A DNA stretch of 45,137 nt from Escherichia phage vB_Eco_Sem3. The stretch lies in sequence record PV775410.1; one strand, 5' to 3'. Every line of letters begins with the position of its first letter. The first letter of the stretch is position 1. The notes beneath the pieces are model-generated. The model was given only the letters and a program-made list of their open reading frames with translations. It was not told the DNA's origin and did not search any database. Both the position numbers and the translations under genes were made by a program. Below are positions 38,502-45,137 of the stretch, in pieces.

Positions 38502-38630
38502 TCAGAACTCCCACGCAGCGCGTTTAGATGCACGGTCACGGACAGGTTTATTCAGCTTCTTGCCTTTCTTCTGCCCTTCTTCCATGTCAAAACGGTTAGC
38601 TTTACGGGTCATCTTCTCAAAGTTACGCAT
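38502..38630 (-). CDS. T7 gp1.1-like small basic protein (42 aa)
   Basis: MRNFEKMTRKANRFDMEEGQKKGKKLNKPVRDRASKRAAWEF closely parallels T7 gp1.1 (MRNFEKMTKRSNRNARDFEATKGRKLNKTKRDRSHKRSWEGQ, from memory). Confidence 0.7.
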   Translation of the reverse strand: MRNFEKMTRKANRFDMEEGQKKGKKLNKPVRDRASKRAAWEF

Positions 38631-38955: not shown

Positions 38956-41583
38956 TTATGCGAAGCAATAGTCAGATACTAAGATTTCGTTAAGGTCAAA
39001 TTCTCCTTGCTCTGGCACTTGGATTCCGGTGTCTACTAACCAGCGTTCTTCATGCTCATCTAACAGGCTTTGCAGGGCATTACGACCTTGATACATCTTC
39101 ACCATTTCTGCCCTTAAGCTATCCCGCAGGTCTGCTGTACGGCCTGCATGAGTACCAAAGGAATCATGGATGACTGCAATAGAGGTAATACCTTTATCCA
39201 CTAAAGCACACACCGTTAGAATCAGGTGGCTAGCATCATGACCATGCACGAAGTTAGGAGCAGCCGCACCCATCATGGCTGTTTCATCCACTACATCAGT
39301 CTCAATCTGTAGACTCATCTTGATTTCACCCATCAAGCAAGTGGATACGCGTAGCATGTCGGTAGCCATTATCTTTTGTTGCAAGATGAAACCAGTAGGT
39401 AAGGTGTACTCTAGCCCTTCGTTTCTTTTAGCTGCGAAGCGTGCAAGCTGGCGAATCATTTTCATCGCCACTATAGGAGCTTTAACAACCTCAGAGATAG
39501 AAGGCCAGATTAAAGCTGTCATATAGTTATAAGCTGCGCTAGGTGTCAGGCTGTCCTTACGGTCATTATCAAAAGGGTGTACAGGATTGGCGGTACGCCC
39601 TTCCGCAATAGCTCGTTGGGCCTCTTTTTCTTCCAAATCAACGATATAATCAATCACTGATTCACGGCAGGTTAGACGTGTGCTGCCATAAGGTAGTGTC
39701 ATTACGGGCTTTTTGGTCAATCCGCGAGTGATTCCTATCATATCCCACGCATTAGCCATGCTACGCAGTTCTGCACCTGTAAGTGTGACGCTCCCAGATG
39801 TGAAAGTCACTGCATCGTCTGCATTCATGTAGGCGTAATTCTTCTGGATAACAACCTGCGCAACCGCGCCATAAATATCTTGAGGGAAGTCAGAAGGCTT
39901 AAGGTTTACTGCTTTCGCACCTACTTCATCGCGTAACATCGCGCTATAGTGCTGGATACCAGAGCAACTACCGTCTTGATGGACGGGTAGATGCGTCATG
40001 AATTGGTCTTGCGTGCCTTCATCCAGTGCATCCAGATAACGCGCATATTCAAAGCACCATGCAAGGAAGCCGTAAGGGGAATCAGCATTTACCCATTGAG
40101 TGAAGGTCAGCGGATCGGCTGCAATGTCGCGGCACATGTCTTGAAATTCGCCATCCAGCACGTTAGAGGTGCGCACGTCAAAAGTTTTCTTATCCCAACC
40201 CCAGTTATTCGCCCCGTTCACCAAAAACCACTTAAGCGCCTCAGCGCTATCAAGACGCTGCCCTTCGGTAAAACGGAGCAATGCCTTGCCTAAGTCGTTT
40301 GATTGCGGCGAGAGCGTGCTAGATTGCGCATAAACGCGTGAACGGCTATCCAGTGCATATACAAAATAAATCGCGTCAAACTGGCTGTATTTACGGGCCT
40401 GTCCTACCATGCGGACGGTCGCCGCCGACTTGCTGCCGCGCTTAGTCTCAGCGGTATACAGCTTAGTACATTCACCCTTCCAGTTGATGAAGGCCTGCCA
40501 TTGCTCCGGTGTTAGCATCTCTTTCAATTCACGGCCTCGCAGGTGCTGGAACTCTAACGGCACTGGATTAGCTGGCTTGTTCTCACGGTCGATGAGTGGT
40601 TTAAAGGAAGGCACACCATAACCAAGGTCGAGACGGATAACGTCCTCTACTACCTGCAAAACCTCTTTATTAACCTGCCACTTAGTCGCCTGCAAAGCGT
40701 TAACAGCCTTGTAAACCGCTGGCATTTGCTTTTTGGTCAGCTTGCGGACGTGCTCGCGGTTTCCTTTAACCAGACGAATACGACTCGCCACCTTCTCGGT
40801 ATGGAAGCCACCATTAAACGGAGAAACCCACGGACGAGGAGGAATAACGCAAGGCGCATAGGCTGGACTCAGCTGAGCTACGTGCTCTTTAAATGCAGTT
40901 ATCCATTCACCCACATGTTCGCTAGTCTGTAAGTAGTAAACGCCATGCTTGCCACCATTAGTGCGCAAGGTGCGAAGAAAGACAGGCTGACCATTGAAGA
41001 ATACACTATTTTCCAGTATTTCTAGCAAGGTCATACCTATTTGTAGCAAGGTATCTTTAGGCCACGCCTCCCAGCGAGAGAAATCAGCGTCACGGTCAGC
41101 CACTGACTTCTCAGCCACGACCGCTACGTTGTGCGCATGGCGATATGATTTAGTCTTACTTGCCTTAAGTGACTTCTTAACTTTCTCAAAGTATTTGGCG
41201 GCGTGACCTTCCAGCTTGCTAAAACGTACTTGGTCCTCAATGCGGTCAGCTACATTCATGGCTATAGCCTGCAAGGTTACATCCGTGTTCAGCATATCCA
41301 TAACGATTTTCATCGTGATATATGCTGCCACTTCGTTTTCTACGCAGTTAATGAAAGCTAATGCACGCGGTGCACGGCCTCTTTTACCTTCATACTCTTC
41401 CTTGTATGCCTGAATACCTTCAGCCATTGGCGCGATTAACTCGGACAATAAGCGGCGATTCCAGGCCGTGTCTGATTCATTACCGGATGCAATCTGGCGT
41501 TGTTGGTCCGCTTCAAAGCGACGGATACCGCCGTTAAACATTTCTTCTTCAAGTTGAAGTTGAATAGCGTGTAGGTCTTGCAT
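38956..41583 (-). CDS. Single-subunit DNA-dependent RNA polymerase, SP6-type
   Basis: 875 aa; N-terminus [31 protein letters not shown]… and catalytic motifs (…[15 protein letters not shown]…, …VHDSFGTHA…) match SP6 RNAP as I recall it; RBS AGGAG. Confidence 0.95.
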
Positions 41584-41646
41584 CTTGTTTACTCCTAGTG
41601 AAAGAAACCTTAATAGGTGACACCTAAGAAGATGCCACCGATAAGG

Positions 41647-42570
41647 TTACTTAGTTAATTCTTCTACTGCCTCAGAGATTAAGGGCCATGCTTCATGGCC
41701 TTCGCCGTATCCTAGCTTAACCAGTTCGCGGCGTGCCTTGTTAACTGCTGTTTTCTTCGTTGCCTCCTCAGCGCTTAAACCTAAGCGAGCATAGAAGCAG
41801 GAAGATTTGAATTGCGGCAGCATAGGCGCGGCTGCTTTCTTGCTTTCGCGTGCGCTGCTTAAGGAGGCAATGCGGTCATTAGCTGCCTGTAATTGCTCGG
41901 TCAGTGCTTTAATTTGTGCCAGAAGGCCAGCAATAGCGGCACTCTCGGTGTTAGCCGTGTTATCCAGTGGCGCGGCCTTAGGCGCTTCCGGCTTGCTTTC
42001 ATCTTCCCACGGTGCGGATTCGTCGTTACCCGACTCACTTGCTGGCGGCACACTTTGTAATTCCTCTTTCGCCTTCTCTAAGATGAAATCCTCAAAGGTT
42101 GCATGTCCTTGCATAGTTTCTGCGGCCTCAGTCGCATTCTCCTGCGGTTTTACCGCCTCAGACTTAGATTGTACCGTCTCGGCCTTTGTCTCTTTCTTAG
42201 GATCAATCAGGGCGTTTACGGCGTTAGTGTCCAGCTTGCCCTCTGCGGCGAGTTCTGCGGCCTTCTCCATGATCATATTTTCATCAGCGAAAGGAACAAG
42301 CGCCAGCATTACACGCATAGCCACACCTTTAAAGCGTTCGTCTCCTTCAAAGACACGGGCTACACTCATCAGCTTGTAGCATTGTGCTTTCTTGATGCCG
42401 AACTCTGATTCTACATAAGCTAAAAAGTCTTTTTGACCTTCGAAATCACCGCGTAATTCATTCAGACAAGCGCCAACTTTGATGTAAGAAGTGCCGATAT
42501 TGTCTAAGTGCTGCTTGATTTCAGCGGTTGCAGCTTCACGAACAGACAGAAGGATGTTTTCAGTAGTCAT
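41647..42570 (-). CDS. Early protein of unknown function, 307 aa
   Basis: Start at MTTENIL (RBS AAGGTGA); N-terminal globular region, long acidic Ala/Pro/Glu-rich linker, small C-terminal domain; occupies the T7 gene 0.7 position but has no kinase motifs. Confidence 0.6.
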   Translation of the reverse strand: MTTENILLSVREAATAEIKQHLDNIGTSYIKVGACLNELRGDFEGQKDFLAYVESEFGIKKAQCYKLMSVARVFEGDERFKGVAMRVMLALVPFADENMIMEKAAELAAEGKLDTNAVNALIDPKKETKAETVQSKSEAVKPQENATEAAETMQGHATFEDFILEKAKEELQSVPPASESGNDESAPWEDESKPEAPKAAPLDNTANTESAAIAGLLAQIKALTEQLQAANDRIASLSSARESKKAAAPMLPQFKSSCFYARLGLSAEEATKKTAVNKARRELVKLGYGEGHEAWPLISEAVEELTK

Positions 42571-42631
42571 ATTAATCACCTTATAGTGTAAGTAAATATC
42601 ACATAGCCCACATAGGCAGGCTATAGGCTAG

Positions 42632-42859
42632 TTACTTGATGTAATGCCACGTTTCTATAAATGCATCTTTGCTAATGGCGCATTCCGTGCCGTTAGGTGC
42701 AATGTATTCTACAAGCCCACCTCTTACACAAAGGTAATTACCGCCTTCCTTTCTTAGTTTGCGTTTAGCTTTATCAAATAAGAACTCACGGTAAAGATGA
42801 TAGGAGCACCAGCTTAAGCCAATAAGAGCAAATGCCATAATGATGCTATCTAAATCCAT
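42632..42859 (-). CDS. Early small membrane protein, 75 aa
   Basis: RBS AGGAG; N-terminal TM helix IIMAFALIGLSWCSY, then a basic soluble domain. Confidence 0.55.
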   Translation of the reverse strand: MDLDSIIMAFALIGLSWCSYHLYREFLFDKAKRKLRKEGGNYLCVRGGLVEYIAPNGTECAISKDAFIETWHYIK

Positions 42860-42922
42860 AGTCTTAACTCCTAGTAAGTGAAAGTTTAATCAGGCGCTAC
42901 CGTAGCAACGCCTTGTTAAGCC

Positions 42923-42945
42923 TTCTCTTATAGTGTCAGCTAAAT
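42923..42945 (-). promoter_or_regulatory. Degenerate phage promoter-like sequence (GTCAGCT variant)
   Basis: Minus strand reads ATTTAGCTGACACTATAAGAGAA; lies upstream of the RNAP gene, where a phage promoter would not be expected to act early. Confidence 0.3.
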
Positions 42946-43051
42946 AGTTTGTATGTAGTACCTAGCACTTCCTCACGAATCTGAGCGAATCGTAGGGAAC
43001 ACTTCAGGGTTACACCGTCTGAAAAGATGAAGTTGTATAGCTTTTCCATTC

Positions 43052-43408
43052 TTATTCCTCTTCTTCTTTTTCTAAATATTCGGCAGAGTTGACGTATTCA
43101 ACAATCATATACTGAACACGTTCCCATAGATCAATTGTGAGTTGCTCATAGATACGGGCTTGCAATACTACGGTTACATCCTTAGTGTCTGGCATCAGGC
43201 CGGAGTCTTCGAAGAAATGATCAATTCCTTCACTCGCCATCACGGAGAAGATGTCAGCATAATAGATTGGTACAGCACTATCCGCCGCATCATGGATTGC
43301 ATCATGTGCGTTATCAATACAATCAATAGCATCATTCCAGATACGTTCAACTAATGCAGCATGAGCAGTGTTGTAAACCTGAGAGTAAGTCATATTAGAC
43401 ATAGCCAT
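43052..43408 (-). CDS. ocr: Ocr-like DNA mimic, anti-restriction protein (T7 gp0.3 homolog)
   Basis: Start at MAMSNMTY (RBS GAGGA); …[43 protein letters not shown]…[15 protein letters not shown]… is near-identical in blocks to T7 Ocr as I recall it; acidic C-terminus. Confidence 0.85.
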
Positions 43409-43759
43409 GTTGTTAATCCTCATTTAGTTAGTTAGGTTACATTATAGGAGACTCAAGAGAATCCCCTAGGTTTAACCTATCCAGACTAAGAAGCTTCTAT
43501 CCAAATTGTTAAAGAGCGTGGCTTGTGCCTTGATAGGCTGACTAGTGCCAGCCTTTACTTTAAATCAGTGAGAAACAGCCATACCACTCTTTGAAGCTAG
43601 ATTGGTTTTCCAGTGGTAATATTTCAAGTTTACCATTGACCATACGTTCTACACAAATTAAACCTTTCATGATAATTACCTTAGTTAGTTAGCCTATCAA
43701 GACACAAACCGTATTGTTAAAGAGCGGGATGTTTAAAGACGTCGCCGTCTTGATGCTTA

Positions 43760-43788
43760 ATGTAACCTTGTATGCCGTGGCTGTCAAT
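43760..43788 (-). promoter_or_regulatory. Putative host sigma70 early promoter P2 (TTGACA-N17-TACATT)
   Basis: Minus strand reads TTGACAgccacggcatacaaggtTACATT; followed by a hairpin (AAGACGGCGACGTCTT) and the conserved GCTCTTTAACAAT box. Confidence 0.5.
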
Positions 43789-43795
43789 AGTTAAT

Positions 43796-44005
43796 TTAAA
43801 CTTTATTGCTATTTACTTCTTCCCACTCCAAGGAGTGTTGATTCAGGCTGTTAATCACTCGTTTGTGAGATAACTTGCTTTCAAACTGAAGATAAAACAT
43901 CTCAGTACCATCGTTGAGGTTGTACGTCTGACATTCTGCCTTGTACAAATCGCAGATAGCTTTAGCCGATTTATTGCAATCCGTGTAAATCTCATGTTTA
44001 AACAT
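43796..44005 (-). CDS. Early hypothetical protein, 69 aa
   Basis: RBS AAGGAG; ATG overlaps the stop of the upstream ORF. Confidence 0.55.
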   Translation of the reverse strand: MFKHEIYTDCNKSAKAICDLYKAECQTYNLNDGTEMFYLQFESKLSHKRVINSLNQHSLEWEEVNSNKV

Positions 44006-44174
44006 TGGTTAGCTCCTTCATCAGGTCACGTTTCTGGTTAACTGTATCGGTCCAACCTTCGTTCAGAAAGCGGTGATACAAGGCTAACTCGTCATCTGTA
44101 AGCAATTCGTTGTTACGAATCATGTAGCATAGCAGAGTAAAGATAGCGGACAGTTCACGGTTAGTTAGAGTCAT
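43998..44174 (-). CDS. Early hypothetical protein, 58 aa (MTLTNRELSAIFTLLCYMIRNNELLTDDELALYHRFLNEGW…)
   Basis: Hand-called; RBS GGAGG; ATGA overlap with the upstream ORF. Confidence 0.5.
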   Translation of the reverse strand: MTLTNRELSAIFTLLCYMIRNNELLTDDELALYHRFLNEGWTDTVNQKRDLMKELTNV

Positions 44175-44270
44175 GATAAAGCCTCCACAAACTCAGCATA
44201 AGACAAAGGCTCTTCTCCTCTCACTAATGCGTTATAGTAATAGGCTTTATACAGTTTTTCGTAATTCATA
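44172..44270 (-). CDS. Early hypothetical peptide, 32 aa (MNYEKLYKAYYYNALVRGEEPLSYAEFVEALS)
   Basis: Hand-called; RBS GAGGAA; first ORF downstream of promoter P1. Confidence 0.35.
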
Positions 44271-44390
44271 GCTAATTCCTCATTCAATAAGTAATTAACC
44301 ACGGCATACATAGGTTACACTAAGCAAATTGTTAAAGAGCAAGGTAACTTAGTTACCTACCGTTTGGCTATGTTGCCTCCCGATGACTGT

Positions 44391-44419
44391 AATGTACTAC
44401 CAGCTATTACCTATGTCAA
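44391..44419 (-). promoter_or_regulatory. Putative host sigma70 early promoter P1 (TTGACA-N17-TACATT)
   Basis: Minus strand reads TTGACAtaggtaatagctggtagTACATT; followed by a perfect palindrome GGTAACTAAGTTACC and the GCTCTTTAACAAT box. Confidence 0.5.
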
Positions 44420-44486
44420 CACTAAATTTCACTAAGATAGATTATTTATGTGATACATGTCACAACTACTAAGGTAAACCTAGGTT

Positions 44487-44502
44487 GTCTAACATGTGAG
44501 AC
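44487..44502. repeat. Imperfect copy of the intergenic palindrome (GTCTAACATGTGAGAC, copy 7)
   Basis: Read directly; one mismatch to the perfect palindrome; lies between the ACTAAG repeat array and promoter P1. Confidence 0.6.
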
Positions 44503-44647
44503 TAAGGAAGAGCAACAGATACAGAGCTAGGATAGGCTAGGTTGGCTAGGTTTCTGGTGTTCCTCCTACTGCATCTTATTACTATTCTCTTCTTTAGCGG
44601 TCTACCGACCGCGACCTAATGGCATCTTACATGCTTGCATGTGCAAT

Positions 44648-44787
44648 CACTAAGAGAAGACACTAAGACTTACTAAGGTACACTACTAAGCTATTACTAA
44701 GATAAGCACTAAGGCTTTAACTAGGGTAGTCCACTAAGGTTAACCTAAGCTATCCATCAAGTAATAGCATAAGGTAGTAACTAAGGT
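44648..44787. repeat. Array of short ACTAAG(G) repeats next to the terminal repeat
   Basis: At least eight copies of (C/T)ACTAAG(G) at irregular 10-25 bp spacing; four more inside the terminal repeat itself. Confidence 0.6.
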
Positions 44788-45137
44788 ACACGTCAGGCTT
44801 GTGAGTGGAGCGCTAGCGAAACGAACAGATAGCCCACGCCCTCCCACCCTGTCAAACGCTCAGGAATGGCCCTGAATAGCCTCAGGAATGCACTAAGCGG
44901 CTTCACTAAGGCAATCACCTTGTCCACCACTAAGCCATCCCTAGGCCGTCCTAGGCGCTCTCCAGCGTTCCACCTTGCTAGTACATGAGCAAAGACTAGG
45001 CTGTACCAGCTAACTAGTACGGCCTGCCCTTGTGTACTACTAAGCTAGTACAAGGAGTACATCAGCCCTGCCCCGTCGAAGACGGATTTCCTCAGGCCAC
45101 CCTATGGGGGCAACCCGGCGAGGGCGAGGAAGCAGAG

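Follow-up and report, generated by a model that had tools for sequence, protein, structure and literature searches.

The window analysed here is sequence record PV775410.1, 45,137 nucleotides (nt) comprising the whole genome of Escherichia phage vB_Eco_Sem3, a Vectrevirus (SP6/K1E/K1-5-like) in which every gene lies on the minus strand. Positions 41647-44270, next to the RNA polymerase gene on its upstream side, hold an early (class I-like) gene block. Judging from the sequence, the block holds eight real genes, for proteins of 32, 58, 69, 36, 118 (Ocr), 37, 75 and 307 amino acids (aa). The last of these, on the evidence of family profiles and structure models, is a KorB/ParB-type helix-turn-helix (HTH) followed by an acidic linker, in which P-W-E forms a motif, then by a coiled coil and finally by a J-domain fold without its His-Pro-Asp (HPD) motif.

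An initial annotation of the letters alone had set these genes between the left end of the genome and the polymerase gene and proposed that they form a host-takeover or anti-defence module. The gene map agrees with that position, and every open reading frame (ORF) that it named is present on the minus strand. Over the 3.6 kb around the block, identity is 99.9% with Escherichia phage vB_Eco_Sem1 and with Klebsiella phage vB_Ka_Sem4 and 86-97% with many Vectrevirus genomes (K1E, K1-5, LL11, VEc3), and the gene order of the block agrees with SP6, K1E and LL11. Deposited annotations call all block genes except ocr hypothetical proteins, bar a few evidently spurious labels, and Ocr is the sole product named in this region in the Sem phage paper (PMC13005862).

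Table 1. Features of the early block and its surroundings, all on the minus strand. Ratios of non-synonymous to synonymous polymorphism (pN/pS) are rough because synonymous sites are near saturation. RBS, ribosome-binding site; pLDDT, predicted local distance difference test score; MFE, minimum free energy; AF2, AlphaFold 2.
Feature	Position	Strand	Remarks
Putative sigma-70-like promoter TTGACA-17-TACATT	44391-44419	-	heads the 32/58/69-aa group; 10/12 consensus positions
17-nt palindrome AGGTAACTAAGTTACCT, then first GCTCTTTAACAAT box	44328-44358	-	
32-aa gene	44171-44269	-	accessory, missing in many relatives; phrog_2061, E=8e-14; SP6 homologue exists; pN/pS 0.28
58-aa gene	43998-44174	-	SP6 gp3 / K1E gene 1 homologue; conserved backbone gene; phrog_9275; pN/pS 0.27
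69-aa gene	43796-44005	-	SP6 gp4 homologue; hypervariable alleles, conserved termini; pN/pS 0.59
Second putative sigma-70-like promoter TTGACA-17-TACATT	43759-43787	-	underlies a spurious TTG ORF
Second GCTCTTTAACAAT box, with inverted repeat	43520-43724	-	box at 43713
25-nt inverted repeat	43686-43710 / 43520-43544	-	flanks the 36-aa gene between two GCTCTTTAACAAT boxes; 88% complementary
36-aa gene	43560-43670	-	cassette-like accessory gene
Third GCTCTTTAACAAT box	43505-43516	-	~95 nt ahead of ocr; corresponds to the leader that precedes gene 0.3 in T7
ocr (118 aa)	43052-43408	-	DNA-mimic anti-restriction protein; phrog_2568; TGAGGA RBS before ATG at 43408; pN/pS 0.37
37-aa gene	42936-43049	-	K1-5/K1E gene 4; 2 nt after the Ocr stop; absent from the initial annotation; pN/pS 0.18
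First putative phage-RNA-polymerase promoter ATTTAGCTGACACTATAAGAGAAGG	42919-42945	-	upstream half overlaps the end of the 37-aa gene
Very stable predicted hairpin	42860-42940	-	5' end of the 42929-promoter transcript; MFE -29.7 kcal/mol
75-aa gene (K1E gp5)	42632-42859	-	N-terminal hydrophobic segment; occupant of a replaceable slot
Hairpin with T-run (42602-42625) and second promoter-like ACACTATA site (42582-42589)	42582-42625	-	
307-aa protein gene	41647-42570	-	SP6 gp7 homologue, 63% identity; pN/pS 0.24
Residues 10-125, predicted KorB/ParB-type HTH domain (remote DUF3102)	42196-42543	-	
Residues 126-208, acidic disordered linker	41947-42195	-	pLDDT ~50-60; 19 D/E vs 8 K/R
Residues 209-245, single long helix, probable dimerising coiled coil	41836-41946	-	AF2 helix 209-243; weak coiled-coil family matches
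Residues 246-307, predicted J-domain fold without HPD or helix IV	41650-41835	-	
875-aa single-subunit RNA polymerase gene	38956-41583	-	directly after the 307-aa gene in transcription order

Domain architecture of the 307-aa protein

Single-sequence searches with nine ORFs against Pfam, PHROGs, PADLOC and NCBIfam returned no named family besides Ocr, and PDB sequence searches with the 307-, 58-, 69-, 75- and 37-aa proteins returned no match. The earlier view that only Ocr is recognisable in the block thus holds for searches with single sequences, but not for profile and fold searches, which resolved the 307-aa protein into domains. An exhaustive search of cluster representatives yielded 130 families at E<=0.001, 120 of which were aligned. 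Pfam recognised DUF3102 (PF11300) at the N terminus of 38 of these 120 members and DnaJ at the C terminus of 12. The DUF3102 matches were taken at E<=0.01 (best 1.5e-7), with the inspected members below the 24.4-bit cutoff, and the 307-aa protein of the window gave none at E<=1. The family profile also matches J domains in the PDB (2ys8 at E=5e-6, DNAJA3, E. coli DnaJ at 2e-3). An AlphaFold model of the full-length protein (pLDDT 82, with folded parts above 90) places a helical domain at residues 10-125 and a compact one at 250-307, with disorder (126-208) and one long helix (209-243) between them.

The N-terminal domain is predicted to take the KorB-like repressor fold, with an HTH of KorB/ParB type. 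The most conserved motif, G-[IL]-x-K-[AS]-Q-x-Y-x-L-[MI]-K-V, lies on the helix pair expected to form this HTH. We found no ParB/Srx (CTP-binding) domain ahead of it, as the HTH region starts at residue 10 and there is no ParBc match in Pfam. Against PDB sequences, the N-domain profile drew only repeat artefacts from ETV6 fusions.

Residues 246-307 are predicted to form helices I-III of a J domain. Helix II still shows the A[YF]R..L pattern, and its signature residues and those of helix III are retained. Where J domains carry H-P-D, the profile alignment places Y288-G289-E290 (41701-41709), and the protein ends with helix III (helix 295-306), leaving no helix IV. The domain of the window gave no match to PF00226 at E<=1. 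HPD is present in only 2 of the 120 family representatives, the others having NPD, TPE or unrelated residues, a variation that looks like a decay series; only an HPD-bearing member passes the Pfam DnaJ threshold (43.7 bits).

The fold raises the possibility that the 307-aa protein works through DnaK, like Rki of phage RB43, and docks on the chaperone to sequester or redirect it despite YGE, so that sigma-32 might be stabilised, for example, or the chaperone recruited to phage DNA. The retained residues of helices II and III, the rare members that keep HPD or NPD, and the standing of the J-like domain as the most conserved part of the protein speak for this reading, as does the precedent of Rki itself, an early phage J protein that is beneficial through interference with DnaK (PMC3486835). 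We nonetheless consider it unlikely: HPD is replaced in 118 of the 120 representatives, helix IV is missing, and a single H-to-Q change in HPD abolishes the functional interaction of a J domain with DnaK as well as the function of an Rki chimera (PMC3486835). The J-like domain therefore cannot be assumed to activate DnaK.

The long acidic linker described in the initial annotation is present between the two domains, and the same account was right that the protein has no kinase motifs: there is no kinase family match, and BLASTP against T7 gp0.7 gave E values of at least 9.7. Within the linker A-P-W is invariant (P187-W188-E189 at 42004-42012), although the linker averages only 57% identity. 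Across the family, 35 of 120 linkers contain P-[F/W]-[D/E], where shuffled linkers would give 2.2, and acidic residues usually precede it, as in EDEDDIPFD of one member. Both ...EDEDDIPFD... and the ...DESAPWED... of the 307-aa protein resemble ...DDDIPF, which we take to be the C-terminal tail of the E. coli single-stranded DNA-binding protein (SSB), a likeness that we treat as a lead only. On the model, the protein presumably dimerises through the coiled coil that follows.

Distribution and conservation of the 307-aa family

Using tblastn, we found the 307-aa family in 213 phage records, all of them Autographivirales of ~42-48 kb, and in none of 72,556 plasmids. Their hosts include Escherichia, Klebsiella, Salmonella, Proteus, Erwinia, Pectobacterium, Vibrio, Pseudomonas and others. 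Wherever its position was checked (the related loci and three distant records), the gene lies near the left end, 0-2 genes before the polymerase gene. Mean pairwise identity within the Vectrevirus-SP6 group is 93% for the J-like domain, 85% for the HTH domain and 57% for the linker. By these sequence comparisons, the 307-aa gene belongs to the deeply conserved core of several Autographivirales subfamilies and is not a typical accessory anti-defence gene. In Vibrio phage phi-A318 (locus L026, 1021-2884), the homologue gp03 is followed by the kinase gp04 and then by the RNA polymerase gene. This co-occurrence with a 0.7-like kinase argues that the family is no stand-in for gp0.7. The phi-A318 record also annotates a phage promoter inside gp03.

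These data bear on a simpler account, in which the 307-aa protein is a plain repressor or switch, its HTH dimer sitting on early or host promoters as a counterpart of gp0.7/gp2 shutoff and its J-like domain serving structure or oligomerisation only. The KorB-like fold would suit such a role, as would the place of the gene, which the first phage promoter precedes and the polymerase gene immediately follows, and the 17-nt palindrome just downstream of the first early promoter. A tblastn search of the window found no T7 gp2 homologue, which points the same way but is weak evidence. However, a repeated operator-like palindrome was not found, the stronger conservation of the J-like domain and APW than of the HTH goes unexplained, and the family coexists with a kinase in phi-A318, all of which makes this account doubtful.

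Individual records of the gene vary in quality. The Sem4 record (PV775411, locus L001, 348-1270) splits it into coding sequences of 240 and 49 aa, where the window and Sem1 have it intact; the split is probably a sequencing indel or an annotation artefact. Some homologues carry spurious names (endolysin, andolysin, late transcription factor VLTF-4).

Conserved and replaceable genes of the block

We compared the block with 19 related loci from viral contigs and three annotated genomes. The 58-, 69-, 37- and 307-aa genes and ocr are intact across this set, from Vectrevirus through SP6. The order common to the group begins with the 32-aa gene, which some phages lack, and a variable gene; the 58-aa gene and an allele of 69 or 74 aa come next, then a variable slot and Ocr. 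The 37-aa gene and the phage promoter follow, and a slot for variable membrane proteins precedes the 307-aa gene and the polymerase gene. The slot between the 69-aa gene and Ocr holds the 36-aa gene or a 54-, 55- or 70-aa gene, or is empty. As read from these alignments, the block is a backbone of 58-, 37- and 307-aa genes interleaved with fast-evolving or replaceable ones, namely the 32-aa gene, the 69-aa alleles, the 36-aa gene, two Ocr types and the membrane slot.

The first three genes were described earlier as translationally coupled, and their junctions fit that description: the ATG of the 58-aa gene overlaps the stop of the 32-aa gene as ATGA, and the 69-aa gene overlaps the 58-aa gene by 8 nt. 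The 32-aa gene starts at an internal ATG (44269) of a 46-aa ORF, with GAGGA 8 nt upstream; the first ATG of that ORF has no Shine-Dalgarno sequence. In relatives without the 32-aa gene, the upstream MYAVVNYLLNEEL stretch is joined in frame to the next gene, which marks the stretch as conserved leader DNA and not protein. The 58-aa gene occurs in 101 phage records at 62-100% identity, and its product has no Pfam or PDB match.

The 69-aa gene behaves very differently from its neighbours. In phages whose 58- and 37-aa genes are 88-97% identical, it falls to 27-41% identity and Ocr to 43-51%. The 69-aa alleles keep their termini alone (MFKHE... and ...EEVITNKL), and some phages have a 74-aa allele at this position. 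Such divergence of the 69-aa gene and Ocr beside near-identical neighbours adds what reads as an arms-race signature.

Ocr itself is secure, as the initial annotation had it. It matches PF08684 at E=1e-41 (141.9 bits against a cutoff of 25) and T7 gp0.3 with 65% identity (E=1e-50), and it has a pI of 4.1 with 24 D/E residues. In the record of phage KMB14 the Ocr gene is labelled protein kinase. When each early ORF was compared with T7 gp0.3-1.6 by BLASTP, Ocr was the sole match, in line with the earlier judgement that nothing here resembles gp0.4, gp0.7 or gp1.2; for gp0.4, hhalign gave the same answer.

Immediately after Ocr comes the 37-aa gene, found in 134 phage records. Even in Proteus phages, where the 307-aa homologue is down to ~50% identity, it keeps 83-86%, and by these comparisons no other small gene of the block is as conserved. 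We rejected its identification with T7 gp0.4 (PF26807, an FtsZ inhibitor), for which hhalign gave a probability of 1.3% and Pfam no match. The idea had come from the position after ocr and an S-D-x-V...A-Q-[IL]-[KR]-E resemblance, of which the position alone is truly common to both.

The 75-aa protein, earlier called membrane-anchored, does have an N-terminal hydrophobic segment that would fit such an anchor, and its gene is confined to 31 Escherichia/Klebsiella Vectrevirus records. In other phages, the slot before the 307-aa gene is empty or holds an unrelated protein of 41, 51, 61, 63 or 65 aa, each with one hydrophobic segment at its N or C terminus. Loci L009 and L010 have a 61-aa ORF in this slot that starts MKTLIGCFLLASLALA. 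Its opening residues MKTLIGC include a lipobox-like LIGC, which suggests a small lipoprotein, a kind of phage protein that often serves in superinfection exclusion.

The 36-aa ORF, previously listed as a possible peptide, does not vary among the 34 Vectrevirus records that have it; the T3-like Kayfunavirus EV136_1 has a counterpart of 75% identity just before an S-adenosylmethionine (SAM) hydrolase gene. The two differ by 11 synonymous and 10 non-synonymous codons and share a conserved ribosome-binding site, which argues that the ORF is a real gene that has moved between phage lineages. The long-range stem of its flanking 25-nt inverted repeat is predicted in both the MFE and the centroid fold (z=-2.1). 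This arrangement suggests either a cassette inserted by recombination at the GCTCTTTAACAAT boxes or a messenger RNA segment that could be cut out by a double-strand-specific ribonuclease. At the place of the 36-aa gene, loci L011, L012 and L014 have a 70-aa ORF, between the 69-aa gene and ocr, that ends in ...NVSKATGYRWLKALNDGEL and looks like a small helix-turn-helix protein.

We discarded a 32-aa TTG ORF at 43689-43787 as a gene: among relatives its length ranges from 7 to 35 codons and its stop position varies. Its first 11 codons are conserved and spell TTGACA-17-TACATT, and the hexamer DNA is kept in 16 loci. The ORF is exactly the case envisaged by an account that treats several of the small ORFs as reading frames arisen by chance within a regulatory leader, and many deposited genomes leave the 36-aa ORF unannotated too. 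Extended to the named genes, this account is very improbable. The ORFs are intact and have Shine-Dalgarno sequences, the 32-, 58-, 69- and 37-aa genes are under purifying selection, the Kayfunavirus homologue of the 36-aa gene has accumulated synonymous substitutions, and PHROGs contains a family for each of the 32-, 58-, 69-, 37- and 75-aa genes, though none for the 36-aa gene.

The same pattern of conservation informs the proposal that all these genes, that for the 307-aa protein among them, form an anti-defence island in which each gene of no assigned function counters one immune system. Ocr is present, and a hypervariable 69-aa gene and Ocr together with replaceable slots form a pattern typical of counter-defence loci. 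Against this stand the 58-, 37- and 307-aa genes, which are conserved across genera as accessory counter-defence genes are not, and the 307-aa family further extends across subfamilies and hosts from Vibrio to Pseudomonas to Escherichia. Beyond Ocr, no likeness to anti-defence proteins emerged from the libraries searched, none of them dedicated to anti-defence, as PHROGs gave only families of no assigned function and Pfam, NCBIfam, PADLOC and the PDB no match. We regard an island devoted to anti-defence throughout as quite unlikely.

Promoters, leader boxes and hairpins

Two TTGACA-17-TACATT sites (44419 and 43787) head the two small-gene groups, a position that suggests use by host RNA polymerase. 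The 13-nt GCTCTTTAACAAT box occurs three times (44328, 43713 and 43505). The box also lies between promoter A3 and gene 0.3 in T7 and is present in the Kayfunavirus, which identifies it as a conserved leader element of this phage group. Neither the boxes nor the phage promoter at ~42929 had been listed in the initial annotation.

The window contains 13 cores of the phage promoter, ACACTATA, where 2 would be expected, and every one is on the minus strand. The core at 42929 begins inside the last codons of the 37-aa gene, and all 19 related loci, SP6 among them, keep this promoter 81-368 nt ahead of the 307-aa gene. A phage promoter so conserved indicates that genes from this point onward are probably not purely early. 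The transcript from 42929 would begin with the hairpin at 42860-42940 (z=-5.4), which none of 200 shuffled sequences matched in folding stability. An Rfam scan of 41400-45137 returned no credible RNA family, and its one sub-threshold microRNA match to the hairpin is surely due to chance.

Other features of the window

Near both ends of the window lies a 301-bp exact direct repeat (115-415 and 44829-45129), presumably the direct terminal repeat of the phage genome, beyond which the window reaches by 114 nt and 8 nt. The hexamer CTTAGT occurs 60 times in the window against 31 expected and clusters at 44319-45044 and 178-711 on the minus strand, in one orientation, covering the non-coding left end and the right end and partly falling in the terminal repeat. 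These short repeat arrays are possibly packaging, concatemer-processing or protein-binding sites. A few hundred nt downstream of the polymerase gene, a 42-aa ORF (38502-38630, minus strand), MRNFEKMTRKANRFDMEEGQKKGKKLNKPVRDRASKRAAWEF, is clearly similar by eye to T7 gp1.1 (MRNFEKMTKRSNRNARDFEATKGRKLNKTKRDRSHKRSWEGQ), a likeness indicating that at least one small early/middle gene of T7 is shared outside 41647-44270.

A proposed takeover block with a DNA-bound adaptor

The explanation we favour, with confidence that goes about halfway, is an early takeover block whose 307-aa product is a dimeric, DNA-bound adaptor. Host RNA polymerase would read the block from the two TTGACA-17-TACATT promoters, producing an early transcript punctuated by GCTCTTTAACAAT boxes and hairpins like those before T7 gene 0.3. 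From ~42929, the phage polymerase would add transcription of the membrane slot, the 307-aa gene and presumably its own gene. The variable genes would act on variable host factors, and others besides Ocr, whose action against a host factor has been demonstrated in T7, may target defence systems. The small membrane proteins may work at the envelope, for example in superinfection exclusion, and the conserved 58-, 37- and 307-aa genes presumably act on conserved targets.

For the 307-aa protein, we envisage a dimer held by the coiled coil, with the HTH pair binding a DNA site at which the J-like domain and linker motif would hold a host partner. By analogy with HPD-less Tim16, the J-like domain would be a binding or regulatory module and not an activator of the DnaK ATPase. 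Its part would then lie in host takeover or in regulating the switch from early to middle genes and not in accessory anti-defence. A more specific version makes the SP6-gp7 family a new class of early protein: a dimeric adaptor tethered to DNA, with a J-like domain that would capture or block part of the Hsp70 system (DnaK, or a host J protein as in Tim16-Tim14) and a linker that would mimic the SSB tail internally. Early in infection, in many Autographivirales, it would rewire chaperone and/or SSB clients at a specific DNA site; taken in full, this version is a long shot.

Several observations weigh against the takeover block with its adaptor. The 307-aa protein itself has no match in Pfam, NCBIfam, PADLOC or PDB sequences, its domain calls come from family profiles and AlphaFold models, and Foldseek with the full-length model returned nothing significant. 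No recurring palindrome or other DNA target site was identified for the HTH, and loss of HPD could mean that the role of the J-like domain is unrelated to the Hsp70 system. Sigma-70-like sites in the region are not above chance (7 found against 6.0 expected), and the 42929 promoter has A at +1 where the consensus has G. The promoter-like site at 42582, 13 nt before the start of the 307-aa gene, is out of register and found only in some relatives, making its function doubtful.

The host-takeover or anti-defence module of the initial annotation therefore survives in part. Position, early signals, Ocr, arms-race variability and the replaceable 32-, 36- and 75-aa slots agree with it; the 307-aa gene, as a core gene, and the genes past ~42929, as probably not purely early, do not.

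The distinction has practical weight, since SP6/K1E/K1-5-like phages are widely used therapy candidates and the source of SP6 polymerase. Host takeover by SP6-like phages proceeds without a gp0.7 homologue and, as far as the tblastn search shows, without gp2. Assigning an HTH and an HPD-less J-like domain makes a hypothetical protein of more than 200 genomes testable (DNA binding, DnaK/DnaJ, APW). The early block can also be split: its conserved 58-, 37- and 307-aa genes are likely aimed at conserved host machinery, and the 69-aa alleles, the Ocr types and the membrane slot are the better candidates for counter-defence or exclusion functions.

Comparison with known systems

In SP6 gp2-gp7 and K1E/K1-5 genes 1-7 the block has its closest relatives, direct orthologues with unchanged order and no difference in kind: SP6 gp3, gp4 and gp7 correspond to the 58-, 69- and 307-aa genes, and K1E genes 4 and 5 to the 37- and 75-aa genes. 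These orthologues have been deposited since the mid-2000s as hypothetical proteins, and our literature search found no functional study of them and only passing mentions of DUF3102. The class I early region of T7 (0.3-0.7) is alike in its position between left-end host promoters and the RNA polymerase gene, in ocr and the GCTCTTTAACAAT box upstream of it, in coupled small genes and in small membrane proteins. It differs in that our block has no homologues of gp0.4, gp0.5, gp0.6 or gp0.7 and has a phage promoter upstream of the polymerase gene as well as the HTH/J-like protein, which T7 lacks.

The sole characterised phage J protein found in our literature search is Rki (ORF057w) of the T4-like phage RB43, which benefits the phage through the host Hsp70 system (PMC3486835). 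Rki is likewise an early protein with a J-domain fold, but its J domain is N-terminal with an essential HPD and it has no DNA-binding domain, whereas the 307-aa protein has a C-terminal J-like domain with YGE for HPD, no helix IV and a KorB-like HTH. Mitochondrial Tim16/Pam16 and ICP22 of herpes simplex virus 1 (HSV-1) are HPD-less J-like proteins of other lineages with other partners, none of them fused to an HTH, and a Tim16-type pairing with a genuine J protein would be, for the phage domain, an analogy only. With respect to KorB, ParB and SopB, the 307-aa protein lacks the N-terminal CTP-binding domain of ParB and the C-terminal dimerisation domain of KorB, and its N-domain shows no similarity to theirs at the sequence level. 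A large J-domain survey discarded sequences without a full HPD (PMC10410713), a requirement that renders the 307-aa family invisible to such surveys. The block as a whole is thus of an ordinary, known type, and what is new is the domain architecture of its 307-aa protein.

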